Virus record (IMG/VR): IMGVR_UViG_2541047894_000004
Reading direction: 5' to 3' (one strand)
Source of the DNA: a virus
Lineage: Duplodnaviria > Heunggongvirae > Uroviricota > Caudoviricetes
Length of the DNA stretch: 35,499 bases
In this document: one piece after another, positions 1-35,499 of the stretch
How the letters are laid out: every line of letters starts with the position of its first letter
Numbering within the stretch: position 1 is the stretch's first letter
Made by a program: the position numbers and the translations under genes
The notes under the pieces: generated by a model
What the model was told of the DNA's origin: nothing
Database searches by the model: none
The model's input: the letters and a program-made list of their open reading frames with translations, nothing else

Positions 1-1236
1 CTACGATAACCGCGCATTCAACATAGCTACCTGTTCGTCGTTCATGTCATCAATCCACATACCGTAAATTTCATACACCATCTGCGCAGTTTCATGCCCC
101 ATCTGGCTGGCTATAAATGCCGGGTTCGCTCCTGCCGTCAACAGCCAGCAGGCAAAAGTATGTCGCGTATGGTACGGATTACGGCGGCGAATACCAGCAC
201 GTTTTACTGCTGCATTCCATCTCGCACCCAAACTGCTTACCGAGTAATAAGGTTTCTGTTTTCCGTTACACATCCTGGGCATGAAAACAAAATGCAGTTT
301 TTGCTTTTCGGTTCTGCCGTACTCCCGATGATAAAAAGTGATTTCGCTTTTGCGATGATGCCCGGTCAGTTTGTATTGCTCCTTCAGTGCTTCAAGAGCT
401 GGCTGTAGTAGTGTTACCGTCCGGATCCCCGCATTTGTTTTTGGGGGACCGAACATATCAAGTATCGTCAGGTTTCTTCTGACATTCACAATTCCCTTCT
501 CGAAATCCACATCCTCCCACGCCAGAGCTGCCAGTTCCCCGTGACGAAGCCCGGAGTAAACGGCAAATTTCCACAAGTTTTGGCTCTGTCCTTTTTCACT
601 TTCCATTAATGCATTGAATTCTGTTTTAGATAACGGGTCAGGCTTTATTCTGTTTCGCTGTAATTTTTTTACTCCTTCAAATGGTTTGGTTGATATAAAT
701 CCCGACTGATACGCAAAACGTAACAACGAACAGAGCAGGGCGATATAGTTATCAACTGTGCGCACGGTTCTTCCTTTTTTGTTGGATCTTGGATTATCCA
801 GGTAAAGCGTTTCTCCATGCAGCAGTTCATTCCGGTAGTTTAAGATATCGCTATAACGAATATGCGATATCGGGGTACTCTCACAAATTATTATCCTGAG
901 TGTTTTTAATTGTGATTTCGTTTTCTTCATTGTGTTTGTTGTTAACTCTGTCTCTTTAATTTTTGTCCAGATATCACAAAGCTCCCCGAACGTTTTTATG
1001 ACTCTCGTTGTCACCATTTTTGCCCCAGTGCTGGACTGGGGAAAACGTCTTAAATACTCAAATTCACCGGAACTGATTTCATGAACTATCAACGCTCTTA
1101 AATTCCCGGCCTTTTTAATGTTACTGTTAGTAATCTCCCAGCCTTTCAATGTTTCCCGACATCGTTTGCCTCGAAACATGAACCAGATGCGAATGTATTT
1201 ACCTCGAATCTCGACACCTGTTGGTAATTTAGACAT
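1..1236 (-). CDS. intR: Tyrosine-type site-specific integrase (IntR-like), 411 aa
   Basis: Full 411-aa ORF including stop; C-terminal HTRHTFA (HxxR) region typical of tyrosine recombinases; sits at prophage end next to xis. Confidence 0.93.
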   Translation of the reverse strand: MSKLPTGVEIRGKYIRIWFMFRGKRCRETLKGWEITNSNIKKAGNLRALIVHEISSGEFEYLRRFPQSSTGAKMVTTRVIKTFGELCDIWTKIKETELTTNTMKKTKSQLKTLRIIICESTPISHIRYSDILNYRNELLHGETLYLDNPRSNKKGRTVRTVDNYIALLCSLLRFAYQSGFISTKPFEGVKKLQRNRIKPDPLSKTEFNALMESEKGQSQNLWKFAVYSGLRHGELAALAWEDVDFEKGIVNVRRNLTILDMFGPPKTNAGIRTVTLLQPALEALKEQYKLTGHHRKSEITFYHREYGRTEKQKLHFVFMPRMCNGKQKPYYSVSSLGARWNAAVKRAGIRRRNPYHTRHTFACWLLTAGANPAFIASQMGHETAQMVYEIYGMWIDDMNDEQVAMLNARLS

Positions 1237-1237
1237 A

Positions 1238-1453
1238 TCATGAGTCTTTGATAAACTGATTTATCTTCGGATAGTTGTACCAGATAATCCCTCGCTTACT
1301 GTCTGGCTTCCCTAAAGGAGATACTCGTTTGAAGTGGAAGCCTTCCACCCAACAGTTCTGGCGGTATGCTTCAATTTGTCTGGCACCCAGACCAGTGCGA
1401 AGCATCAGGCCGTATTCAACCATCCACTCTTCATTAAAGATTACTTGTGCCAT
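1238..1453 (-). CDS. xisR: Excisionase (XisR/YdaQ-like), 71 aa from the internal ATG
   Basis: Small ORF immediately upstream of int; the ORF-track start at 1477 is TTG, the ATG at 1453 gives 71 aa ([10 protein letters not shown]...). Confidence 0.8.
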
Positions 1454-1552
1454 CGCATCACCTCTGGCAGGCGCCAATGTTAGGCTGAAATTGACGCCCG
1501 ATGTTGATTATTAATAATCAGCTATGAAGTTTTAATTTGAATACAATGCAAT

Positions 1553-1741
1553 TCACGAGGACTGAAGTTTCTCGCAATTAAAATTTATCAGTTTTACTTT
1601 CTGCTCTCTGGAAACGCCCGCTTCTTTTTTACCTGAGAGCATTTTTTCGCATTCTGATTTCGTTAGTTTAGATTTTGAATATCTTGTCCAGTTAGTAGGA
1701 GTGCCACCTTCCTTTTCAATAGTGGCGGTAATTTTATACAT
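1553..1741 (-). CDS. ydaC: Small Rac early protein (YdaC/RcbA-like); start uncertain (ATG at 1741 or 1753)
   Basis: ORF between xis and ralR; GGAGG 5 nt upstream of the ATG at 1741; that start codon overlaps the last ralR codons. Confidence 0.55.
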   Translation of the reverse strand: MYKITATIEKEGGTPTNWTRYSKSKLTKSECEKMLSGKKEAGVSREQKVKLINFNCEKLQSS

Positions 1742-1928
1742 GAACACCTCCATTATTATTTCCAGTGGTTCGTTTATTCCATCTTTCGAGTGCTTCTTTT
1801 TCACTTCCACCATAACCGGTTCGGGATTCGCATCCGTTACACTTCGCTCGGTAATATCCTGAAATGGCTTTCACCGTTACTGATGGACAACCACAAAATG
1901 GACATGGTTTAACATTGTCATATCTCAT
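1734..1928 (-). CDS. ralR: Restriction-alleviation protein Lar/RalR, 64 aa, Cys4 zinc ribbon
   Basis: MRYDNVKPCPFCGC...CNGCESRTGY with CxxC...CxxC; length and position match recalled Rac RalR. Confidence 0.88.
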   Translation of the reverse strand: MRYDNVKPCPFCGCPSVTVKAISGYYRAKCNGCESRTGYGGSEKEALERWNKRTTGNNNGGVHV

Positions 1929-1984
1929 AATTTTTCTCATAAAAAATATTTCAAGTTGGCGGTGCATTACACCGCCAGGCTGAA

Positions 1985-2530
1985 TTATTCCTCTGAATTA
2001 TCGATTACACTGTATTCCCCGGTTAATACAGAGGAATCTGCAGGATCGATTGTCAGTGGTTCCTTTTCATCCATTGATACTGCACGCTGGATCTCAATTG
2101 ATACGGGCAGATATTTGAACAGGCGACGAATAGCCGTTTTCTTTGCCATTTCTTCCCAGTGAGTTACCCACGGCCCGTTATTACCAGCTTTACTCAGGCT
2201 GCGCACCAGCTCAATCTGTTTGCGCGTCATAACTTCAAACTGAGTACCTCCGTCTTTCAGTCTTGCGACAGCATAGACGTGGGTAACCGGGGCATCTTCG
2301 TTTTCTCCCGGGCGGTGTATTAACTTTTCATCAAGGCCAAATTCGAAGCTAAACTCGTCACCTTCACGGACAACACGGGCTGACAGGCTGGCGATTTTAC
2401 CTGACTTAACGATCAGGTAGTCCAGAGTGGCACAGGTCGATTCAAAATCGTTGCTTGCCCACAGGACGACGTCAGGTTCACCGGATGATTTTTTCGCTTT
2501 CCGTAACAGGAAGAGTGGTTTTGTGCTCAT
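1985..2530 (-). CDS. recT: Truncated RecT-family annealing protein: RecE-like N-terminal 45 aa fused in frame to RecT C-terminal ~136 aa
   Basis: 181-aa ORF; C-terminal part ([31 protein letters not shown]...[35 protein letters not shown]...[12 protein letters not shown]) matches recalled RecT; N-terminal [45 protein letters not shown] matches recalled RecE start; junction near 2396. Confidence 0.7.
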
Positions 2531-2631
2531 TGTTTTTTAACCTCAACTCAGATTAAAATTCGTTTTGTTCAGTGAATGATCTTGCCGGATACACACTGTT
2601 CATAGCCTGCGCCATACGCAGGCTATTTCTT

Positions 2632-2907
2632 TCAGATTTCACCTTTTAATTTCATTGCAATCAGAGTTGCCAGAAATCCGGCTTTTTTTTCTGCGGGCAG
2701 ATTCTTTCCGATATGCACCAGGCTCATTTTTTTGACACCTTCGTGAAGTGTTTTAACGTTGCCTGATGGACCGTCGATATCAACTACAGTGAATGGGGTT
2801 TCTTTATTTTCTGTTTTAATCACGTAGCCAATACGCTTTCCTTCCAGATTAACCTCGTGAACAATGTCATCAGTAGTTACAATAGTGGTTTCATAATTAG
2901 TAATCAT
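2632..2907 (-). CDS. racC: RacC-like small protein, 91 aa
   Basis: AAGGAG 6 nt upstream of the ATG at 2907 (MITNYETTIV...); the ORF-track start at 2955 lacks an RBS. Confidence 0.78.
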   Translation of the reverse strand: MITNYETTIVTTDDIVHEVNLEGKRIGYVIKTENKETPFTVVDIDGPSGNVKTLHEGVKKMSLVHIGKNLPAEKKAGFLATLIAMKLKGEI

Positions 2908-2981
2908 GTTTTTCTCCTTAATTAAGGTTGAGCGAATCCCTGCCATTGCTGGCATGAATTCAGTTTCGCATAGTCAGTTAA

Positions 2982-3152
2982 TTAAAGTTCGTGTGCCATC
3001 TGGTCTTTTTCGGCACAGATTTCACTACAATATTTTTTCATTTCCGTCGTTGGTATAACTCCACGCATGAAATGAAGTGGTCTTTTAATGCTTTTGCTTT
3101 CTTCAACTCCTTTATTGCAAAGGTGGTAAGCACATTTTATTTTCTCAGTCAT
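2982..3152 (-). CDS. ydaE: YdaE-like Cys-rich small protein, 56 aa
   Basis: Hand-translated: [56 protein letters not shown]; its ATG overlaps the kilR stop (ATGA); below the ORF-track size cutoff. Confidence 0.65.
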   Translation of the reverse strand: MTEKIKCAYHLCNKGVEESKSIKRPLHFMRGVIPTTEMKKYCSEICAEKDQMAHEL

Positions 3153-3373
3153 CACCATGATTCCGCCTTTACAGGTAAGCCATCACGACCGAGGAAAACT
3201 TTAATCATGCAGTCAGTAATGCATGTTTTTGTGGTCAGGTTACGAATATAAAGTTTTCGCTTTTTAATATTGTTTGCCGAGGCAATATATGTCCGGCCGT
3301 TATGAAGAACATAATCACCAGGAGTCACACACTGACGTGGTATTTCATCAGTTCCGAAGTGATGAGCAATCAT
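3152..3373 (-). CDS. kilR: KilR-like cell-division inhibitor, 73 aa
   Basis: [46 protein letters not shown]... matches recalled KilR; first gene of the leftward early operon. Confidence 0.82.
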
Positions 3374-3803
3374 AATTATCTCCATTTTCACAAATGAACT
3401 TTGTTGATGCGGTGCCTGGTGCCTCCAGGTGACGTTAACCAGTTAACAATTAACGCCGGATAATCCACCCATAACTCTGATGCTTTTAACTGTTCCGCGT
3501 GCGCTTAGCCGCATTCACCGCATCACAAAATTCACTTTAAAAAGGGCGGACATCAGCCGAACTTCAAGAAAAAACTGATGCCGCCAAGGCTACACACAGC
3601 AATGTCGTTATTTACAACCGGAGGCGCACTCCCACCATTTAAATTTAACAGACAAGACCGACTCTTTATGGATACCGGAAATGCGCCTTCGTGTTGTGCC
3701 CGGTTTTATTTCACCACCTCCGGGCTTCGGTGGTCTCGGCTATACCCCTACAGCGAGAGCTTGTGTTAACATTTCAATACCCTTACAGTTGAGAGTTATT
3801 GAT

Positions 3804-4292
3804 ATGTTGGATGTATTTACTCCATTGTTGAAACTTTTTGCTAACGAGCCACTCGAAAGACTTATGTATACGATTATCATTTTTGGTCTCACTCTCTGGC
3901 TGATACCGAAAGAGTTTACTGTCGCATTCAATGCTTATACTGAAATACCTTGGCTCTTTCAGATTATCGTTTTTGCCTTTTCTTTCGTGGTCGCCATTTC
4001 CTTCTCAAGATTGCGAGCACATATTCAAAAGCATTATTCATTACTACCAGAGCAACGTGTATTGCTTCGTTTATCTGAGAAAGAAATCGCTGTATTTAAA
4101 GATTTCCTTAAAACAGGAAATCTTATTATCACTTCTCCTTGCCGTAACCCGGTTATGAAAAAATTAGAACGGAAGGGCATCATTCAACATCAGAGTGATA
4201 GCGCAAACTGTTCTTATTATCTCGTCACCGAAAAATACTCCCATTTTATGAAGTTATTCTGGAACAGCAGGAGTAGACGTTTTAATCGTTAG
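3804..4292 (+). CDS. sieB: Superinfection exclusion protein B, 162 aa
   Basis: From the ATG at 3804 (MLDVFTPLLKLFANEPLERLMYTIIIFGLTLWLIPK...), hydrophobic N-terminus; the ORF-track N-terminal extension was discarded. Confidence 0.88.
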   Translation: MLDVFTPLLKLFANEPLERLMYTIIIFGLTLWLIPKEFTVAFNAYTEIPWLFQIIVFAFSFVVAISFSRLRAHIQKHYSLLPEQRVLLRLSEKEIAVFKDFLKTGNLIITSPCRNPVMKKLERKGIIQHQSDSANCSYYLVTEKYSHFMKLFWNSRSRRFNR

Positions 4293-4455
4293 CTTACTGT
4301 GTGCTTCTCCAACCATCGGCGCGCACCAGTTTCGGTTTTAAATGTTTTGCTTTTTGTATACGTCATCGCGGTGAACGTACCGTCCTGGTTGGGTAACACG
4401 CCGCACACCAGGGATTAGTTGTTGCCGAGGTCGATTTTTTGCATTTTGGGAACTC

Positions 4456-4590
4456 TCACATCTTGTTGTTGCGGATAGAGGCTTCTGCTTGCCAGAGATC
4501 CCAGTCGTTGCTGCGTAAAGCCTGCACAGCCTGGTTGTAAGTGATACCGCAACAATCCATCAAATACTGAATTACTTCGTAATGCACCAT
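4456..4590 (-). CDS. Small prophage protein, 44 aa (YdaF/YdaG-like)
   Basis: ATG at 4590 preceded by AAGGGG; product MVHYEVIQYLMDCCGITYNQAVQALRSNDWDLWQAEASIRNNKM. Confidence 0.5.
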   Translation of the reverse strand: MVHYEVIQYLMDCCGITYNQAVQALRSNDWDLWQAEASIRNNKM

Positions 4591-4780
4591 CTTTTTTCCC
4601 CTTAACGCCGGGGGGCGGAACGTTTTATCTACTGCGCTTTGTATCAATCAACAACTGCCGTCATGTTCGTATGCCTCAGGCTGGCTACTTAGCCCTGTTC
4701 AGTGGCTGGATAACTCGAGGTATTGTCCTGCCGTTCTCCGGTGGGGCGTTGTTTGGATATGCTTATTAAACACAATTGGT

Positions 4781-4805
4781 TTTTGTGTGTCAACACAAAA
4801 TGTGT
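4781..4805. promoter_or_regulatory. Operator-like overlapping palindromes TTTTGTGT-GTCA-ACACAAAA-TGTGT downstream of racR
   Basis: Perfect inverted repeats read directly from the sequence; same ACACA/TGTGT half-site as in the racR-ydaS intergenic region. Confidence 0.45.
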
Positions 4806-4837
4806 TTTTATAGTGGCGTGTCATATGATGATGGTAC

Positions 4838-4861
4838 AAAAAAAGCCCGCCGATAGCGGGC
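4838..4861 (-). terminator. Rho-independent terminator downstream of racR
   Basis: On the minus strand: GCCCGC-tatcg-GCGGGC stem-loop followed by a U7 tract, 32 nt after the racR stop. Confidence 0.75.
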
Positions 4862-4892
4862 TGATTGGCATATTACTGTGATAGCAAGATCA

Positions 4893-5312
4893 TTACTCCG
4901 GTGGGGGGGTATCTTTAAGCCTGCCCCTCAAATATTTTTCTACATACTCGTCGATTTCTTTTAGCCGGACTTCAAATAGCTCAATCATTCGTTGTTGTTC
5001 TGAGCCCGGTAGCTGGTTAAACAACTCAAGAAGTTTTCGTTGGGATTCATTTAACCACAATTCAGAAGAGTCTTTTTCCCCAAAGAGGAGCTCAGGAGGA
5101 GATATGCCCAGTGCCTTTCCCAGGACGACAGCATCATGCACTCCAACATTTCTGCTGCCCGCCTCATAGTTACCTATACGCGATTGCGTCCATCCGCAGA
5201 TTTCAGCAAGTTTTCCTTGAGATAAACCAAGCTTCTGCCTGCGCTCTTTAAGACGCATTGCAATTTTGTCATTGAGCCTACTAGCGGCAATTTTTTCGTT
5301 TTCTTTTTCCAT
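4893..5312 (-). CDS. racR: CI-like HTH (XRE family) prophage repressor, RacR-like, 139 aa
   Basis: HTH-like stretch LGLSQGKLAEICGWTQSRIGNYEAG; divergent from a cro-like gene; RBS AAGGA upstream. Confidence 0.82.
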   Translation of the reverse strand: MEKENEKIAASRLNDKIAMRLKERRQKLGLSQGKLAEICGWTQSRIGNYEAGSRNVGVHDAVVLGKALGISPPELLFGEKDSSELWLNESQRKLLELFNQLPGSEQQRMIELFEVRLKEIDEYVEKYLRGRLKDTPPPE

Positions 5313-5323
5313 TTCGTCCTTGT

Positions 5324-5390
5324 ATCACGAATCGTGATTTATATAAAACACAAAATAGCTTGACCGTAAAACACAAGATGTGTTTAAAAT
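5324..5390. promoter_or_regulatory. Divergent promoter/operator region between racR and ydaS
   Basis: Palindromes ATCACGA-A-TCGTGAT (5324-5338) and AAACACA-AGA-TGTGTTT (5369-5385) in the 96-bp gap between divergent HTH genes. Confidence 0.5.
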
Positions 5391-5408
5391 TGTCGTCGGA
5401 GGTTTTTA

Positions 5409-5651
5409 ATGAACAAAATTTCAACATATCGAAAACAACTTGGTCTGTCTCAAAGACAACTCGCTGTTCAGCTAGGGTGGATACAAAGCCGACTAGCAAA
5501 TTACGAAGCAAACTTTCGTACCCCTGGGCTAGAGGAGTGCAGAAAAATTGTTTCCACCCTTAATCGGCTTGGTGCTCATTGTGGACTTGACGATGTATTC
5601 CCCCCAGACGGTAAGCATAGCGAAAACAGCATAGGAGCGGTTGATTCATGA
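5409..5651 (+). CDS. ydaS: Cro-like HTH protein (YdaS-like), 80 aa
   Basis: GGAGG RBS; HTH-like LGLSQRQLAVQLGWIQSRLANYEA; divergent from the repressor. Confidence 0.78.
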   Translation: MNKISTYRKQLGLSQRQLAVQLGWIQSRLANYEANFRTPGLEECRKIVSTLNRLGAHCGLDDVFPPDGKHSENSIGAVDS

Positions 5652-6070
5652 AAATCAGGCATGAGCACATCGAATCAGTGTTGTTAGCCCTGGCAGCCGA
5701 AAAAGGGCAGGCGTGGGTTGCTAACGCAATTACTGAAGAATATCTGCGCCAGGGGGGCGGCGAATTGCCCCTGGTACCAGGCAAGGACTGGAACAATCAG
5801 CAGAATATCTATCACCGTTGGTTGAAAGGTGAAACGAAAGCGCAAAGGGAAAAAATTCAGAAACTGATCCCTGCGGTTCTGGCAATTCTTCCGCGCGAGC
5901 TGCGTCACCGACTCTGCATCTTCGATACCCTGGAACGCCGTGCATTACTGGCGGCGCAGGAAGCGTTGAGTACGGCAATTGATGCGCATGATGATGCAGT
6001 CCAGGCCGTTTACCGTAAAGCATATTTCAGCGGCGGTGGGTCGCCCGGCGATTCTGTCGTAGTGCATTGA
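5648..6070 (+). CDS. ydaT: YdaT-like (CII-like) protein, 140 aa
   Basis: Start overlaps the ydaS stop (ATGA); length matches recalled YdaT; position equivalent to lambda cII. Confidence 0.75.
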   Translation: MKIRHEHIESVLLALAAEKGQAWVANAITEEYLRQGGGELPLVPGKDWNNQQNIYHRWLKGETKAQREKIQKLIPAVLAILPRELRHRLCIFDTLERRALLAAQEALSTAIDAHDDAVQAVYRKAYFSGGGSPGDSVVVH

Positions 6071-6114
6071 TTGAAATTAATCGTGCCGGACTGTTTTGTT
6101 CGGTATCAGTTAAA

Positions 6115-6558
6115 TGTAACGCTTACAGCGTTACAAGGTGAAAACAATATGGCTTCAAACTGGATAAAGCTCGAGGTTATTACGCCGGATAAGCCGGAAA
6201 TATTCAGGCTTGCTGAGATTCTGAATATTGATCCAGATGCCGCATTAGGGAAAGTCATTCGCTTCTGGGCATGGGCGGATCAACAAATGATAGACGGTAA
6301 CGCAGAGTGTAACGCTCGCGGCGTTACAAAAAGTGCAATAGATCGCATCACTTTTATGGCTGGTTTTGCTGATGCGTTAATTCAGGTTGGATGGCTGGTC
6401 GAAAATAACGGTGGGCTTTCTCTACCTAACTTTGAACGTCATAACGGAAAAAGCTCTAAAAAACGGGCGATTACAAACGAGAGGGTTACAAAAATACGCG
6501 AACTGAAACGAAAAGGTAACGCTGCCAGCGTTACACAAACGGATCAAAAAGCGTTACC
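6115..6558. repeat. Ori-like array of GTAACGC/GCGTTAC palindromes and half-sites with phased A-tracts
   Basis: Palindromes TGTAACGCT-TAC-AGCGTTACA (6115-6135), TGTAACGC-TCGCG-GCGTTACA (6308-6328), GTAACGCTG-C-CAGCGTTAC (6516-6534); half-sites at 6470, 6484, 6551; A-tracts 6440-6515; GAGGAA x3 at 6560-6577. Confidence 0.5.
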
Positions 6559-6937
6559 AGAGGAAGAGGAAGAGGAAGATATAAATACTGATCTCCCCCT
6601 AAATCCCCCTCGCCAAAAACGAGCATCTAAAAAATTCGAGCCGGAGGCTATTGAGTTGCCCGATTGGTTGCCGGAAACACTCTGGCATGAGTGGGTCCGG
6701 TTCAGGCAGGCATTGCGAAAACCGATTCGAACGGAGCAGGGCGCTAACGGGGCGATACGGGAACTGGAAAAATTCCGCCAGCAGGGTTTTACCCCTGAGC
6801 AGGTGATTCGACATAGCATCGCCAATGAATACCAGGGCTTGTTCGCGCCGAAAGGTGTTCGGCCTGAGACGTTGCTCAGACAGGTTAACACTGTCTCGTT
6901 GCCGGACAGTGCGATCCCGCCAGGCTTCAGGGGGTAA
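6149..6937 (+). CDS. ydaU: Replication initiator O-like protein (YdaU-like); start taken at the ATG at 6149 (AAGGTG RBS)
   Basis: Sits just upstream of the DnaC-like gene; carries internal palindromic repeats and an acidic EEEEEED linker as in lambda O; the ORF-track start at 6071 is TTG. Confidence 0.75.
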   Translation: MASNWIKLEVITPDKPEIFRLAEILNIDPDAALGKVIRFWAWADQQMIDGNAECNARGVTKSAIDRITFMAGFADALIQVGWLVENNGGLSLPNFERHNGKSSKKRAITNERVTKIRELKRKGNAASVTQTDQKALPEEEEEEDINTDLPLNPPRQKRASKKFEPEAIELPDWLPETLWHEWVRFRQALRKPIRTEQGANGAIRELEKFRQQGFTPEQVIRHSIANEYQGLFAPKGVRPETLLRQVNTVSLPDSAIPPGFRG

Positions 6938-6943
6938 CGAACC

Positions 6944-7690
6944 ATGAAAAATATTGCGACAGGCGGCGTTCTGGAACGCATCCGCCGACTGACCCCGCCA
7001 CATGTAACCGCCCCATTCAGAACGGTAGCGGAGTGGCGCGAGTGGCAACTTGCTGAAGGCCAGAAACGTAGCGAGGAGATCAACCGCCTGAATCGCCAGT
7101 TGCGGGTGGAAAAAATTCTGAATCGCTCAGGCATCCAGCCGTTGCACCGTAAATGCTCGTTTGCGAATTACCAGGTGCAGAACGACGGTCAGCGATACGC
7201 GTTGAGCCAGGCGAAATCTATCGCTGATGAACTGATGACCGGGTGTACAAATTTTGCGTTCAGCGGAAAACCTGGTACCGGAAAAAACCATCTGGCGGCG
7301 GCTATCGGGAATCGCCTGCTGAAAGATGGCCAGACAGTGATTGTGGTTACCGTGGCTGATGTCATGAGTGCTCTACACGCCAGCTATGACGACGGGCAAT
7401 CAGGCGAAAAATTTTTGCGGGAACTGTGCCAAGTGGATCTGCTGGTTCTTGATGAAATTGGCATTCAGCGCGAGACAAAAAACGAGCAGGTGGTGCTGCA
7501 CCAGATTGTTGATCGCCGGACAGCGTCGATGCGCAGCGTGGGGATACTGACAAACCTGAACTATGAGGCCATGAAAACATTGCTCGGCGAGCGGATTATG
7601 GATCGCATGACCATGAACGGCGGGCGATGGGTGAATTTTAACTGGGAGAGCTGGCGTCCGAATGTCGTCCAGCCAGGAATTGCGAAGTGA
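6944..7690 (+). CDS. ydaV: DnaC-like helicase loader, AAA+ ATPase (YdaV-like)
   Basis: Walker [11 protein letters not shown], Walker [10 protein letters not shown]; follows the O-like gene. Confidence 0.9.
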
Positions 7691-7712
7691 TTTTTACCGG
7701 GAGGAAATTTTA

Positions 7713-8474
7713 ATGGAAACCGTTTTTGATGCACTGAAAGCAATGGGAAAAGCCACGTCGGTAGAACTGGCTGCGCGACTTGATATCAGTCGTGAAGAAG
7801 TGCTGAATGAGCTGTGGGAACTTAAAAAGGCTGGCTTCGTTGATAAAAGCGTATACACCTGGCGTGTGGCTGATAACAACGTTCAGCAGGAACAGCCAGA
7901 GCAGGCAGAACTGCCGGAAGAAACCACCACGGCAACAGTAGCGAAAATCTCAGAGTGCGATTTAACCGCGACGATTGAACAACGTGGCCCACAAACGGCG
8001 GATGAACTGGCTACGTTTTTCGGCACCACATCACGCAAAGTGGCTTCAACGCTGGCAATGGCAATCAGCAAAGGCCGTCTGATTCGCGTTAATCAGAACG
8101 GTAAATTTCGTTACTGCATGCCGGGCGATGATTTACCAGCAGAGCCGAAAGCTGCATCGGTAACGGAAACTGATGGTAAAGCCTTTCCTCAACCAGCAGG
8201 TGTTGCGTTACCGGGACAGGAAGCTGCAACACAGGAAGATATTAAAACAGAAACTGTGGCGGACATTGTGCAGTCGTTGCCATCGTTTACCGAAACGCGA
8301 GCGGATGACCTCGTTCTGCCATCGCTGCATATGGCAAACCGCGAACTGCGTCGGGCGAAAAATCATGTCCAGAAGTGGGAGCGTGTCTGCGCCGCGCTGC
8401 GGGAGCTGAACAAGCACCGGGATATTGTTCGACAGATTACTGATTCTTCTCGCTGTGTTGCATCGGAAAAGTGA
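7713..8474 (+). CDS. Hypothetical nin-region protein, 253 aa, with two winged-helix-like repeats
   Basis: GGGAGG RBS before the ATG at 7713; internal repeat [19 protein letters not shown] / [19 protein letters not shown]; function unknown. Confidence 0.6.
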
Positions 8475-8489
8475 TTGCCGGAGGCGCTT

Positions 8490-8888
8490 ATGGCAAAAGT
8501 ATTTACACAAGAAGAGCGGGAAAAAATCAAGGGACAGGTTGTTGAGCTAGTACGCCGGAGTGGGCGCGAGACGTTACGGCAACTGGAAGCCAAGACAGGT
8601 GCGACAAGATATCTGATGAGCGTTCTCGCCAGAGAGCTGGTTGCCAGTGGCGATGTATATAACTCTGGCTACGGGTTATTCCCGTCTGAACAGGCTCGTA
8701 AGGACTGGCAAAACGCCCGCAAAAAACTCTCGAGGGCAAAGGTGAAGAAAACATCTGTGGTTGATCCGGACCTTATCTGGTCATTACCTGACGGAGAAAT
8801 ACGTCGTTATGACAGGCACCAAAACATAATTTGCTGTGAGTGCCGGAAGAGCGAAGTTATGCAGCGCATACTGGCATTTTATCAGTGA
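8490..8888 (+). CDS. Hypothetical protein, 132 aa
   Basis: GGAGG RBS; ORF with protein-like composition immediately downstream of the previous gene; function unknown. Confidence 0.55.
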   Translation: MAKVFTQEEREKIKGQVVELVRRSGRETLRQLEAKTGATRYLMSVLARELVASGDVYNSGYGLFPSEQARKDWQNARKKLSRAKVKKTSVVDPDLIWSLPDGEIRRYDRHQNIICCECRKSEVMQRILAFYQ

Positions 8889-9069
8889 AATTTTCGTTAT
8901 TTATAGACGTAACTAGATTAAAGAGCATTAGTTCAGATGTGAATTGACATTTTCACGGCACAGGATTGAGCTAGCGTGGTTGTCTGCTTTGCGTCAAAAG
9001 CAGATATTACAAGATTTAGACATCTATTCCCGATAGCCCTGCTCTGATGCTACACTCTGTGCTATTTTC

Positions 9070-9756
9070 ATGACCCCAATAAAAATATTTATGACTATTG
9101 CTGATTTCAAACGGCCTAAATTGGAGCTCCCAAACGGGGCAAACAAACTACTACTGCACTCTTGCTGTGCTCCATGTTCCGGTGAAGTGATGGAGGCGCT
9201 TCAGGCCTCGGGAATCGACTATACCATCTTTTTCTACAACCCGAACATTCATCCTCAGAAAGAGTATTTAATTCGTAAGGATGAGAATATTCGCTTTGCT
9301 GAACAACACGGCGTGCCATTTATTGATGCTGATTACGACACAGACAACTGGTTTGAACGTGCCAAAGGAATGGAATGGGAGCCCGAGAGGGGGATCCGTT
9401 GTACCATGTGTTTTGACATGCGTTTTGAGCGGACAGCGCTGTACGCTGCTGAAAATGGTTTCAGTGTGATCAGCAGTTCACTGGGCATTTCACGCTGGAA
9501 AAATATGCAGCAGGTTAACGACTGTGGGCGGCGAGCCGTCGCGCATTATCCGGGCATGGTGTACTGGGATTATAACTGGCGCAAGCAGGGCGGCTCGTCC
9601 CGCATGATTGAAATCAGCAAGCGCGAAAAATTCTATCAGCAGGAATATTGTGGCTGTGTGTATTCTCTGCGCGATACCAATCTACACCGCAAATCTCAGG
9701 GACGCCCTCTTATCAAAATTGGTCAACTCCACTACGGTAAAGAAGAGAAGGAGTGA
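9070..9756 (+). CDS. queH: QueH-like epoxyqueuosine reductase (DUF208 family)
   Basis: [20 protein letters not shown], EPERGxRC and C-terminal YCGC motifs as recalled for QueH/DUF208; own upstream region and downstream terminator. Confidence 0.72.
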
Positions 9757-9788
9757 TTTTATGGAGCACCTTTCTTATTGATTTCATA

Positions 9789-9817
9789 TTGGCGAGGTAG
9801 CGGGAGTTAAGTAAAAT
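9789..9817 (+). promoter_or_regulatory. Putative sigma70 promoter of the hok-like mRNA (TTGGCG-N17-TAAAAT)
   Basis: -35/-10 hexamers with 17-bp spacing about 6 nt upstream of GGGTGCTTGAGGCTATCTGCCTCA, which resembles the 5' end of plasmid R1 hok mRNA. Confidence 0.4.
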
Positions 9818-9884
9818 TGCTGCGGGTGCTTGAGGCTATCTGCCTCAGGCATGAACACCAAAAGGCAGATAGAGAAAAGCCCCA

Positions 9885-9950
9885 GTTAACATTACGCGTC
9901 TCTGCAAGACGCTTAACATTAATCTGAGGCTCAATCTATGCTGAACACAT
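9885..9950 (-). ncRNA. Possible Sok-like antisense RNA overlapping the mok initiation region (approximate)
   Basis: Inferred from hok/sok architecture; candidate minus-strand promoter TTGCCT-N17-TAACCT (rc of plus 9976-9981 and 9953-9958); hairpin GCGTCT/AGACGC at 9902-9918. Confidence 0.25.
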
Positions 9951-10143
9951 GCAGGTTAGCCTCTTACGTGCCGAAAGGCAAGGAGAAGCAGGCTATGAAG
10001 CAGTAAAAGGCGATGTTAATCGCCCTGATCGTCATCGGTTTAACCGTCATAGTGACGGCACTGGTAACGAGGAAAGACCTCTGCGAGGTACGAATCCGAA
10101 CCGGGCAGACGGAGGTCGCTGTCTTCACAGCTTACGAACCTGA
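9949..10143 (+). CDS. mok-like overlapping reading frame
   Basis: 64-aa ORF starting upstream of and overlapping the hok frame, as mok does in hok/sok loci. Confidence 0.4.
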   Translation: MQVSLLRAERQGEAGYEAVKGDVNRPDRHRFNRHSDGTGNEERPLRGTNPNRADGGRCLHSLRT

Positions 10144-10150
10144 GGAGTAA
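9995..10150 (+). pseudogene. hokD: Hok/Gef-family toxin gene (HokD/RelF-like) with an in-frame TAA at codon 4; 45-aa ORF possible from the internal ATG at 10013
   Basis: Reads MKQ*KAMLIALIVIGLTVIVTALVTRKDLCEVRIRTGQTEVAVFTAYEPEE; AGGAG RBS 9 nt before the ATG at 9995; the internal ATG lacks a good SD. Confidence 0.7.
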
Positions 10151-10556: not shown

Positions 10557-11042
10557 ATGGCTGAGATTGTTGAAGGAGTGCACTACCTTTCGGTTGATGA
10601 TCTTACTGAAATTAATCGCCTTTTAATTGAGCTTCAAACACCAGATGAACCTGTTGGTGTGCTGAGTGTTGATAATTTAAGTTCTTCTCAGTCTCGTCCC
10701 AGTATGGTTCGATGGTATGAGCAAACCAACGACATGTTTGTACTGGCATCGGTATTGATTGAAAGTCTGATTCAGAATCATCCATTTGCCAATGCAAACA
10801 AGCGCACAGCAATGATGGCTGGTGCGGTTTTTTTATTGTTAAATGGATACGAATTAACCGCACCAGGCGATGAAGTTGTGGAGATGGCTGAGGGGCTGGC
10901 CTGTAAAATTTATACACGAGAAGAGCTTGAAAATTGGTTGTGTTATTGGTCTCGTGCGTATGACAGTCGGGAATTATGTAAAACAGGCGCAACTATTGTT
11001 TTGTATGAAACTATCAAGCTTAAAATAGAACAGCAAAACTAA
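10557..11042 (+). CDS. doc: Doc-family toxin (Fic/Doc fold), 161 aa
   Basis: HPFANANKR fits the Doc signature H-x-F-x-(D/N)-(A/G)-N-K-R; small gene immediately upstream; alternative TTG start at 10548. Confidence 0.78.
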   Translation: MAEIVEGVHYLSVDDLTEINRLLIELQTPDEPVGVLSVDNLSSSQSRPSMVRWYEQTNDMFVLASVLIESLIQNHPFANANKRTAMMAGAVFLLLNGYELTAPGDEVVEMAEGLACKIYTREELENWLCYWSRAYDSRELCKTGATIVLYETIKLKIEQQN

Positions 11043-13334: not shown

Positions 13335-13410
<76 letters not shown>

Positions 13411-13413
13411 TAT

Positions 13414-13488
<75 letters not shown>

Positions 13489-15575: not shown

Positions 15576-17033
15576 ATGAATACATCTCATGTAAGAGTTG
15601 TTACTCATATGTGTGGGTTCCTGGTTTGGCTCTATAGTCTTTCAATGTTGCCACCAATGGTTGTAGCATTGTTTTATAAAGAAAAAAGCCTGTTCGTTTT
15701 CTTTATAACTTTCGTTATATTTTTTTGCATTGGTGGCGGAGCGTGGTATACAACTAAGAAATCTGGTATTCAATTACGTACCCGTGATGGGTTTATTATA
15801 ATTGTAATGTTTTGGATTTTGTTTTCTGTTATTAGTGCATTCCCTTTATGGATTGACTCAGAACTTAATTTAACGTTTATTGATGCTCTATTTGAAGGGG
15901 TTTCTGGAATAACAACAACAGGAGCAACTGTAATTGATGATGTTAGTTCATTACCTCGGGCATATTTGTACTATCGGTCACAGTTAAATTTTATAGGTGG
16001 CTTAGGAGTTATTGTTCTGGCGGTTGCTGTATTGCCATTATTGGGTATTGGTGGTGCAAAGCTTTATCAGTCAGAAATGCCAGGGCCATTTAAGGATGAC
16101 AAACTTACTCCCCGCCTGGCCGATACGTCACGGACACTTTGGATAACTTATTCTTTATTAGGTATTGCTTGTATTGTCTGTTATAGACTTGCAGGAATGC
16201 CTTTGTTTGATGCTATTTGTCACGGGATATCCACAGTTTCGCTTGGTGGTTTCTCAACTCATAGCGAGAGTATCGGATATTTTAATAACTATTTGGTTGA
16301 GCTGGTGGCTGGTTCTTTTTCCCTGCTATCGGCTTTCAACTTCACCCTTTGGTATATTGTTATTAGCAGGAAAACGTTAAAACCTTTAATCAGAGATATT
16401 GAACTTCGTTTCTTTCTGTTAATAGCCTTAGGGGTGATCATTGTTACCTCTTTCCAGGTCTGGCATATAGGTATGTATGACTTGCCTGGAAGTTTTATTC
16501 ATTCGTTTTTTCTTGCCAGCTCCATGCTCACTGATAATGGTTTAGCTACGCAGGATTATGCAAACTGGCCCACGCACACGATAGTGTTTTTGCTGTTGTC
16601 AAGTTTCTTTGGGGGATGTATAGGTTCAACTTGTGGTGGAATTAAGTCACTTCGATTTCTTATACTTTTCAAACAAAGCAAACACGAGATAAACCAGCTT
16701 TCTCATCCCAGAGCGTTGTTGAGTGTAAATGTAGGAGGGAAGATAGTTACAGATCGTGTAATGAGGTCTGTATGGAGTTTCTTTTTTCTTTATACTCTCT
16801 TCACGGTGTTTTTTATACTGGTGTTAAATGGTATGGGATATGATTTTCTTACATCATTTGCAACAGTGGCTGCATGTATTAATAATATGGGATTAGGTTT
16901 TGGGGCTACTGCATCGTCATTCGGAGTGCTTAATGACATTGCAAAATATTTAATGTGCATAGCTATGATTCTTGGTCGCCTTGAAATTTATCCTGTTATT
17001 ATATTGTTTTCAGGTTTTTTTTGGCGCTCCTAA
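15576..17033 (+). CDS. trkG: Potassium uptake protein TrkG (TrkH family), 485 aa
   Basis: Polytopic membrane protein; MNTSHVRVVTHMCGFLVWLYSLSMLPPMVVALFYKEKS... matches recalled Rac TrkG; AT-rich relative to its neighbours. Confidence 0.93.
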   Translation: MNTSHVRVVTHMCGFLVWLYSLSMLPPMVVALFYKEKSLFVFFITFVIFFCIGGGAWYTTKKSGIQLRTRDGFIIIVMFWILFSVISAFPLWIDSELNLTFIDALFEGVSGITTTGATVIDDVSSLPRAYLYYRSQLNFIGGLGVIVLAVAVLPLLGIGGAKLYQSEMPGPFKDDKLTPRLADTSRTLWITYSLLGIACIVCYRLAGMPLFDAICHGISTVSLGGFSTHSESIGYFNNYLVELVAGSFSLLSAFNFTLWYIVISRKTLKPLIRDIELRFFLLIALGVIIVTSFQVWHIGMYDLPGSFIHSFFLASSMLTDNGLATQDYANWPTHTIVFLLLSSFFGGCIGSTCGGIKSLRFLILFKQSKHEINQLSHPRALLSVNVGGKIVTDRVMRSVWSFFFLYTLFTVFFILVLNGMGYDFLTSFATVAACINNMGLGFGATASSFGVLNDIAKYLMCIAMILGRLEIYPVIILFSGFFWRS

Positions 17034-34075: not shown

Positions 34076-34819
34076 ATGACAGAGACAGAATCAGCGATTC
34101 TGGCGCACGCCCGGCGATGTGCGCCAGCGGAGTCGTGCGGCTTCGTGGTGAGAACGCCGGAGGGGGAAAGATATTTTCCCTGCGTGAATATTTCCGGTGA
34201 GCCGGAGGAGTATTTCCGGATGGCTCCGGAGGACTGGCTGCAGGCAGAGATGCAGGGTGAGATTGTGGCGCTGGTCCACAGCCACCCCGGTGGTCTGCCC
34301 TGGCTGAGTGAGGCCGACCGGCGGCTGCAGGTGCAGAGTGATTTGCCGTGGTGGCTGGTCTGCCGGGGGGCGATTCACAAGTTCCGCTGTGTGCCACATC
34401 TTTCCGGGCGGCGCTTTGAGCACGGGGTGACGGACTGTTACACGCTGTTCCGGGACGCTTACCATCTGGCGGGGATTGAGATGCCGGATTTTCATCGCGG
34501 GGATGACTGGTGGCGTAACGGCCAGAATCTCTATCTTGACAATATGGAGGCGACTGGTTTTTACCGTGCCGCACTGACAGAGGCGCAGCCGGGCGATGTG
34601 CTGCTGTGCTGCTTTGGTTCATCGGTGCCGAATCATGCCGCCATTTACTGCGGCGACGGCGAGCTGCTGCACCATATTCCTGAACAACTGAGCAAACGAG
34701 AGAGGTATACCGACAAATGGCAGCGACGCACACACTCCCTCTGGCGTCACCGGGCATGGCGCGCATCTGCCTTTACGGGGATTTGCAACGATTTGGCCAC
34801 CGCATCGACCTTCGTGTGA
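34076..34819 (+). CDS. K: Tail assembly protein K (lambda gpK-like; MPN/JAB plus NlpC/P60 domains)
   Basis: HSHP JAMM-like motif and Cys/His peptidase-like region; position between L and I. Confidence 0.88.
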   Translation: MTETESAILAHARRCAPAESCGFVVRTPEGERYFPCVNISGEPEEYFRMAPEDWLQAEMQGEIVALVHSHPGGLPWLSEADRRLQVQSDLPWWLVCRGAIHKFRCVPHLSGRRFEHGVTDCYTLFRDAYHLAGIEMPDFHRGDDWWRNGQNLYLDNMEATGFYRAALTEAQPGDVLLCCFGSSVPNHAAIYCGDGELLHHIPEQLSKRERYTDKWQRRTHSLWRHRAWRASAFTGICNDLATASTFV

Positions 34820-35364
34820 AAACGGGAGCCGAAGCTATCCGGGCGCTGGCCACGCAGCTCCCGGCGTTTCGTCAGAAACTGAATGAGGGCTGGTATCAGG
34901 TGCGCATTGCCGGGCGTGATGCAGGCGAAAACGAATTATCTGCCCGTCTTAATGAGCCGCTGGCAAATGGTGCCGTGATCCACATCGTACCGCGTCTGGC
35001 GGGTGCCAAAAGTGGCGGTGTTTTTCAGGCAGTGCTGGGGGCTGCGCTGATTGCGGTGGCATGGTGGAACCCTGTGGGCTGGCTGGGTGCCGCGGCTGTA
35101 TCGGGTATGTATGCGGCAGGGGCCAGTATGATCCTGGGCGGTGTGGCGCAGATGCTGGCACCGAAAGCCAGAACTCCCCGCACACAGACAACGGATAACG
35201 GCAAACAGAACACGTATTTCTCCTCACTGGATAACATGGTTGCCCAGGGGAATGTTCTGCCCGTTCTGTACGGTGAAATGCGCGTGGGGTCACGCGTGGT
35301 ATCTCAGGAGATCAGCACGGCAGACGAAGGGGATGGTGGTCAGGTTGTGGTGATTGGTCGATGA
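34717..35364 (+). CDS. I: Tail assembly protein I (lambda gpI-like)
   Basis: MAATHTLPLASPGMARICLYGDLQRFG... and the C-terminal YFSSLDNMVAQGNVLPVLYGEMRVGSRVVSQEISTADEGDGGQVVVIGR match recalled gpI; overlaps the K 3' end as in lambda. Confidence 0.9.
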   Translation: MAATHTLPLASPGMARICLYGDLQRFGHRIDLRVKTGAEAIRALATQLPAFRQKLNEGWYQVRIAGRDAGENELSARLNEPLANGAVIHIVPRLAGAKSGGVFQAVLGAALIAVAWWNPVGWLGAAAVSGMYAAGASMILGGVAQMLAPKARTPRTQTTDNGKQNTYFSSLDNMVAQGNVLPVLYGEMRVGSRVVSQEISTADEGDGGQVVVIGR

Positions 35365-35385
35365 TGCAAAATATTTTATGTGAAA

Positions 35386-35404
35386 CCGCCTCCGGGCGGT
35401 TTTG
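35386..35404 (+). terminator. Hairpin between I and J
   Basis: CCGCC-tccg-GGCGG followed by TTTTG. Confidence 0.4.
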
Positions 35405-35424
35405 TCGTTTATGGAGCATGACGA

Positions 35425-35499
35425 ATGGGTAAAGGCAGCAGTAAGGGGCATACCCCGCGCGAAGCGAAGGACAACCTGAAGTCCACGCAGTTGCTGAGT
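35425..35499 (+). CDS. J: Host specificity / central tail fibre protein J, 5' partial (first 25 codons)
   Basis: MGKGSSKGHTPREAKDNLKSTQLLS matches the recalled start of lambda gpJ; truncated by the window end. Confidence 0.9.
   Translation, partial: MGKGSSKGHTPREAKDNLKSTQLLS

Follow-up and report, generated by a model that had tools for sequence, protein, structure and literature searches.

The recE-recT locus described here has very likely been inactivated by a recent deletion, restricted to one lineage, in an otherwise full-size Rac-type lambdoid prophage next to ttcA. What the deletion leaves behind is a chimeric open reading frame (ORF) of 181 amino acids, in which the beginning of RecE runs in frame into the end of RecT. 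This is an ordinary, recent and rare prophage gene loss in a well-known operon, not a new kind of protein; it does offer a clean natural case of deletion at a short homology, for which a sister strain supplies the ancestral allele down to the single base.

The fused reading frame and its junction

The window (the whole stretch of DNA analysed here, 35,499 nt) was compared with two references, K-12 Rac (L001) and a near-identical prophage of E. coli DLL7555 (L007, NZ_CP186931.1); the latter was found at 100.0% identity over 24.4 kb when positions 2600-27000 of the window served as the query. The features on which the argument turns are listed below, with the evidence for each in brackets.

1985-2530, minus strand: chimeric recE'-'recT ORF, 181 aa, ATG start (ORF list, sequence, DLL7555 comparison, Pfam)
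2395-2530, minus strand: recE-derived part, recE nt 1-136, RecE residues 1-45 (136 of 136 nt identical to K-12 and DLL7555 recE)
1985-2397, minus strand: recT-derived part, recT nt 398-810, RecT residues 134-269 and the native stop codon (413 of 413 nt identical to DLL7555 recT)
2395-2404, minus strand: deletion junction, an exact 3-nt overlap AAA (2395-2397) within an imperfect 8/10 match (base-by-base comparison)
2541-2544, minus strand: native recE Shine-Dalgarno sequence GAGG, 10 nt 5' of the ATG at 2530-2528 (read from the sequence)
2632-2907, minus strand: racC-like gene, the immediate upstream neighbour within this leftward early operon; 91 aa in the DLL7555 annotation, with the longest ORF extending to 2955 (ORF list, DLL7555 transfer, carrier gene calls)
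1734-1928, minus strand: ralR, the next gene downstream, its spacing to the recT stop codon unchanged (DLL7555 transfer; Lar_restr_allev Pfam match on carrier contigs)
4893-5312, minus strand: prophage repressor-like HTH gene, 139 aa (ORF list; HTH_3/HTH_31 Pfam matches on carriers; helix-turn-helix annotation in DLL7555)

The chimera, with a computed mass of 20.3 kDa and pI of 5.4, consists of RecE 1-45 (MSTK...VKSGK) followed by RecT 134-269 (IASLS...NSEE). Nucleotides 1-136 of its ORF are nt 1-136 of recE, and nt 134-546 are nt 398-810 of recT; all 546 of 546 bases are identical to these two DLL7555 segments, which excludes chance resemblance, and the recT part differs from K-12 recT by one mismatch. 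A first-pass annotation of this DNA had read the ORF as about 45 residues of RecE joined to the last ~136 of RecT, a recombination module cut down to one 181-aa chimera, and had named K-12 Rac recE-recT as the alignment on which this reading depends. That alignment returns RecE 1-45 and RecT 134-269, and the composition is exact at the level of single bases against both K-12 Rac and DLL7555. The same annotation supposed that frame and ribosome-binding site (RBS) had been kept; indeed, the GAGG at 2541-2544 and the recE ATG are untouched, and the Shine-Dalgarno stretch is the one found 5' of the intact recE in DLL7555.

Profile matches retell this history. The RecT profile (PF03837, E=4e-30) aligns over positions 68-187 of 198 and Exonuc_VIII (PF06630) over positions 1-45 of 203, each match being cut at the junction. 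By its sequence, the chimera is a descendant of a recT gene; of the Exonuc_VIII profile, it holds those first 45 positions alone. Intact RecE is matched by PF12684 at residues 615-850, and a Pfam search of the chimera finds no match to PF12684 or to PD-(D/E)XK families.

The same locus in DLL7555 has an annotated intact recE (866 aa) and recT (269 aa). On the recE side of the junction, the window and DLL7555 are identical at 2,570 of 2,570 positions; on the recT-int side just two mismatches are seen, both inside the imperfect homology beside the junction, so that no real difference exists at window positions 1-2394 (2.4 kb) or 2395-8659 (6.3 kb). Because the flanks and both pieces are identical to DLL7555, the locus can be traced to one deletion in a DLL7555-type prophage, with the chimera unchanged since. 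The left 4.7 kb of the window is likewise collinear with K-12 Rac (intR, xisR, rcbA/DUF1187, ralR, recT, recE, racC, ydaE, kilR, sieB), and the sole break is one gap, the deletion itself: window 4748-2395 aligns to K-12 798-3153, and window 2404-1 to 6001-8404. Save for this internal loss, the order kilR-ydaE-racC-recE-recT-ralR-xisR-intR beside ttcA is held in the window and in the carrier contigs. The locus therefore resembles the E. coli Rac operon for RecE (exonuclease VIII) and RecT in its position and neighbours (the racC-like gene upstream; ralR, xisR and intR downstream, on the ttcA side), in the recE start and RBS, in the recT stop codon, and in retained segments that are 100% identical to the intact allele; unlike that operon, it is without 2,857 bp, and with them without RecE 564-866, the rest of the RecE N-terminal region and RecT 1-133.

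How did the two genes come to be joined? Both breakpoints share AAA, of which one copy remains, and this triplet lies within an imperfect 8/10 match (recE TCAGGTAAAA versus recT TCTGGTCAAA); Ser-Gly is encoded just 5' of the junction in both parents (recE TCA GGT AAA A; recT TCT GGT CAA A). Relative to the intact allele, the missing DNA removes codons 46-866 of recE and 1-133 of recT. Its length is of the form 3n+1, which cancels the +1 frame offset of recT relative to recE, and the fusion is therefore in frame. Here, too, the first-pass annotation anticipated most of the outcome: it had put the junction around 2396, at a Ser-Gly codon pair common to the two genes, and had proposed a microhomology-mediated in-frame deletion of roughly 3 kb. 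The AAA falls at 2395-2397, the codon pair is present in recE and in recT, the measured loss is slightly below the estimate, and the exact triplet inside its 8/10 surroundings, with a single copy kept, is what such a deletion leaves.

When breakpoints are placed at random in recE and recT in a simulation, an exact overlap of at least 3 nt arises with P=0.056, and a best 10-nt window with at least 8 matches with P=0.004. The breakpoints (L007 2570 and 5427) are not brought together by any hairpin, nor by any long repeat, direct or inverted, of the ancestral recE-recT segment; a 12/12 exact repeat elsewhere in the segment was not used by the deletion. The locus thus displays the features of a short-homology (illegitimate) deletion, namely a short shared sequence at breakpoints free of long repeats and mobile elements, and the short homology fits RecA-independent illegitimate recombination, such as replication slippage. 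When recE-to-recT deletions are simulated, 32.7% leave an open fusion frame that reads through to the recT stop codon; with an in-frame prior of 0.327, the preserved frame needs no special explanation.

The available data suggest the following course of events: a single illegitimate-recombination event (e.g., replication slippage) would have joined the sites that share AAA within the 8/10 match; the join removed 2,857 bp and came out in frame by chance, an outcome expected about one time in three; translation from the RBS and start codon of recE would now yield RecE(1-45)-RecT(134-269), ending at the recT stop codon; and this product, devoid of the exonuclease domain and very probably unable to anneal DNA, would leave the prophage without RecET recombination function. 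Fusions born of deletions have been met in this operon before: A. J. Clark's laboratory reportedly obtained sbcA-type racC'-'recE fusions from deletions in Rac. These fusions resemble the present allele in that a deletion in the same operon gives rise to an in-frame fusion using an upstream start, and differ from it in being laboratory-selected and in activating a functional RecE nuclease, which the natural chimera removes.

What the product keeps and loses

On the RecE side little survives. The nuclease domain occupies residues 564-866; no function has been assigned to the N-terminal region, which is dispensable for basic function (PMC11611040). Truncated RecE variants engineered for recombineering, reduced to the C-terminal nuclease domain, show that large RecE deletions still give a stable product (PMC11611040); unlike the chimera allele, which has neither, they keep the nuclease domain alongside an intact recT. 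A search of the literature on natural recET deletions in Rac prophages returned recombineering papers and no natural deletion alleles.

For the RecT side, the one solved RecT-family structure found, that of LiRecT (PDB 7UB2/7UBB), serves as a map; residues are numbered as in the LiRecT paper, which, judging from residue identities, equals the PDB chain index minus 3. The LiRecT fold runs αA-C, the β1-β2 hairpin, α2, β3, βA-B, β4, β5, αD-E and α3; its DNA groove is formed by α2, α3, the hairpin and αD/E, its N-lobe comprises residues 34-109, its upper subunit interface is provided by the N-terminal bundle, and its most conserved part is the α2-α3 interface (PMC9772228). In the alignment to 7UB2, E. 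coli I134 stands opposite LiRecT Y123, and the RecT part of the chimera aligns from there to about residue 236, a stretch that includes β3, βA-βB, β4, β5, αD/αE, α3 and part of the C-terminal tail. The chimera accordingly keeps the conserved β-β-β-α core (β3-β5 and α3), with K206, R210, N211, K215, W216 and I218 in α3, together with K191 and F194 in αD/E, the C-terminal tail and the lower subunit-interface residues.

What it is missing, unlike LiRecT, is the αA-C bundle, the β1-β2 hairpin (equivalents of V98, Y100, K101 and Q107) and α2 (Y110, K111, I114 and L118). Six of the twelve listed DNA-contact residues are gone and six are kept, and the whole upper interface is lost: with RecT 1-133 deleted, the N-terminal lobe, which clamps the annealed duplex and forms that interface, is absent. 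A complete RecT core, made up of the hairpin, α2, β3-β5 and α3, is thus not present in the chimera. The consequences can be gauged from LiRecT mutants, in which DNA binding was disrupted by K111A on its own and the interface double mutant L118A/F171A resisted purification (PMC9772228). The charge balance has shifted as well: the deleted half of RecT is basic (pI 10.0) and the retained half acidic (pI 5.0), leaving the chimera at 5.4, compared with 8.4 for RecT. Given the absence of the hairpin, α2 and the N-lobe, the K111A phenotype and the removal of the basic half, annealing has very probably been lost, by homology to the 7UB2-based map, and poor folding of the product is plausible. A single-sequence AlphaFold prediction of the chimera, run with no alignment input, has a mean pLDDT of 37.7 and a pTM of 0.29, too low to bear on its folding. 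Some residual binding activity may nevertheless linger in the retained RecT part.

When would such a product be made? The chimeric ORF belongs to the leftward early operon, downstream of the HTH gene at 4893-5312 and of a terminator-like hairpin (4862-4844), and the HTH gene presumably keeps this operon, chimera included, silent in the lysogen. Between 2530 and about 4860, a consensus scan of the minus strand finds no sigma-70-like site; promoter-like matches in total equal the shuffled expectation, and a scan of this kind is weak evidence either way. Rac recombination genes undergo zygotic induction, i.e., they are under repressor control (PMC5917428); given this control and the lack of a promoter match directly upstream in the scan, the chimera would probably be transcribed only upon prophage derepression. 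In the intergenic space between the racC-like gene and recE, a perfect 10-bp stem is present at 2602-2626 (AGCCTGCG...CGCAGGCT); it is terminator-like on the plus strand alone, antisense to the operon.

Carriers and competing explanations

Exact-match searches used a 29-mer that spans the junction, GTTAAGTCAGGTAAAATCGCCAGCCTGTC. A survey of other E. coli Rac prophages for this junction, the first-pass annotation's own proposal, turned up nothing among complete genomes (0 of 5,426), 1,839 of which hold the two pieces at separate places; the 29-mer likewise has zero exact matches in IMG/VR, JGI metagenomes and GTDB species representatives, and the junction is absent from sequenced phages. Within a collection of 15 billion proteins, the exact 181-aa protein occurs as EQW52412.1 ("exodeoxyribonuclease 8", E. 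coli UMEA 3087-1) and HAX9636479.1 ("hypothetical protein"), labels that should be replaced by recE'-'recT deletion remnant (pseudogene). The chimera protein is found, letter for letter, on about 6 contigs, from three NCBI assemblies and several sequencing runs of different projects, as compared with 581 contigs for the exact parental RecE allele and at least 1,000 for the exact RecT.

The carriers examined point back to one chromosomal and prophage background. The five carrier loci that were compared are 100% identical to the window over 2.8-3.0 kb. In the two with chromosomal flank, 8,016 bp are 100.0% identical to DLL7555, CH4811 and OZ547246, none of which has the junction (intact recET is shown directly in DLL7555); Nissle 1917, ATCC 25922 and clone D come next, at 99.9%. 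Among the carriers examined, the deletion is, on sequence evidence, a single event in one chromosomal lineage. Its recurrence in independent assemblies means that the allele is real, and its persistence for long enough to spread in a sublineage (several assemblies and projects) indicates that it does the host no strong harm. Of the 5,426 genomes, 1,636 have at least 80% of the recE-recT segment (3.4 kb) in one piece, 1,423 of these at 99% identity or more; partial recE-recT forms are a small minority across E. coli. One of the natural partial forms, in genome H91, is a 5'-truncated recE that keeps the nuclease domain together with recT. An intact recE-recT is the rule in Rac-type prophages.

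Two readings would dispense with a deletion altogether. Could the junction have arisen in sequencing or assembly, from a contig that was collapsed or chimeric? That no complete genome has it might hint at this, but the identical junction recurs in the three independent NCBI assemblies and in separately assembled runs, on contigs of up to 612 kb, and the breakpoints hold no repeat able to collapse in assembly, so the chance of an artefact is negligible. Nor is it credible that the protein is a natural full-length member of another family that merely resembles RecE and RecT: every base comes from two parental segments of an otherwise identical prophage, and both Pfam matches end at the junction. 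Independent assemblies, full nucleotide identity and the junction-cut Pfam matches effectively refute the misassembly and other-family readings.

The remaining alternatives accept the deletion and ask whether selection had a hand in it. The first-pass annotation raised the possibility of a selected remodelling of the locus rather than simple decay, and this view finds no support: about a third of simulated deletions would be in frame, the allele is rare and known from one background, the chimera has acquired no substitutions, and Rac-type prophages as a rule keep recE-recT intact. Both pieces are still identical to the intact allele, so the chimera bears no trace of purifying selection and offers no substitutions from which to estimate dN/dS. 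The loss of RecE/RecT might itself have been selected, with the chimera as an incidental scar, if it permitted escape from a retron-type abortive infection system or recombinase sensor, or from toxicity on induction. Overexpressed Rac RecE degrades msDNA and thereby triggers the retron-Sen2 and retron-Eco9 toxin systems, which the neighbouring RacC blocks (bioRxiv 10.1101/2020.06.22.160242); the prophage has kept its racC-like gene, and the allele persists in several isolates. That selected loss is decidedly unlikely follows from the scarcity of the allele (about 6 contigs, where the parental RecE allele is matched exactly on 581), from sister genomes that share prophage and flank and are without the junction, recET being intact in DLL7555, and from the single event seen. 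Alternatively, the chimera may be a working, selected protein, whose RecT C-lobe and tail would bind SSB, an exonuclease or full-length RecT-family proteins, so that it serves as a decoy or caps, in a dominant-negative manner, the annealase filaments that rival phages assemble. The RBS, start codon and reading frame have survived the deletion, the counterparts of LiRecT I126, F171, W216 and I218 at the lower subunit interface are kept, and so is the C-terminal region, which in the RecT family is believed to bind exonuclease and SSB, a role that is putative for RecT itself; set against an in-frame prior of 0.33, the lack of any selection signal in the absence of substitutions, and the rarity and single origin of the allele, these features leave a working protein highly improbable. 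Cast more broadly, the idea that the chimera is made on induction as a dominant-negative or decoy against the recombination of competing phages, or that the deletion was favoured for removing the retron-triggering activity of RecE, is very unlikely to be right.

Inactivation by a recent deletion in one lineage remains the preferred reading, and it matters little beyond correct annotation. The allele does provide a Rac-type prophage that is complete except for its natural loss of RecET, a possible control for the role of RecET in induction, recombination and defence triggering; and should the chimera be active after all, for which the chance is small, it would represent a naturally occurring annealase fragment with dominant-negative action.

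The surrounding prophage

The window as a whole (1-35499) spans the integrase-to-tail part of a Rac-type lambdoid prophage of full size that lies beside ttcA. Whereas the Rac of K-12 is a defective element of 23 kb, this prophage has replication genes, a Q-like antiterminator, lysis genes, terminase, portal, a P22-type capsid and tail genes; as in K-12 Rac, trkG lies inside the prophage (at about 15576-17033). The resemblance to K-12 ends at about 4748, and the immunity region (4749-5700) is different: a 139-aa HTH protein takes the place of the 158-aa RacR as repressor, accompanied by a divergent gene for an 80-aa Cro-like protein and a YdaT-family gene.

Several addiction modules are carried, as indicated by the genes for RalR/RalA, hok-sok and Fic/Doc. 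The RalA antitoxin sRNA (1557-1735, plus strand; Rfam RF02694, 220.7 bits) is antisense to ralR/DUF1187, the region that immediately follows the chimera, and the RalR/RalA type I toxin-antitoxin pair is intact. The sok antitoxin RNA (9824-10000, plus strand; RF01794, 118.8 bits) is followed by a Hok/Gef gene at about 10013-10150, and a death-on-curing (Fic/Doc) toxin gene is found at about 10557-11042. Between the Q-like gene and the lysis genes, the phage carries two tRNA genes of its own, for tRNA-Thr (tgt) and tRNA-Gly (tcc) (13335-13488, plus strand), and the early-right region encodes a homologue of the epoxyqueuosine reductase QueH (9091-9756, plus strand), an unusual metabolic/tRNA-modification gene for a lambdoid phage.

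The remaining differences from DLL7555 are clustered: 11 SNPs fall in 8660-9952 (the DUF977/QueH region), and about 47 substitutions together with small indels fall in 34366-35499 (tail assembly genes). Such clustering suggests that the segments at 8660-9952 and from 34366 onward may be recombination patches rather than accumulated point mutations. Finally, sieB (3681-4292, plus strand) is a 203-aa ORF when read from an upstream ATG, as it is called on some carrier contigs, and 162 aa in RefSeq, so its start assignment is inconsistent between records.
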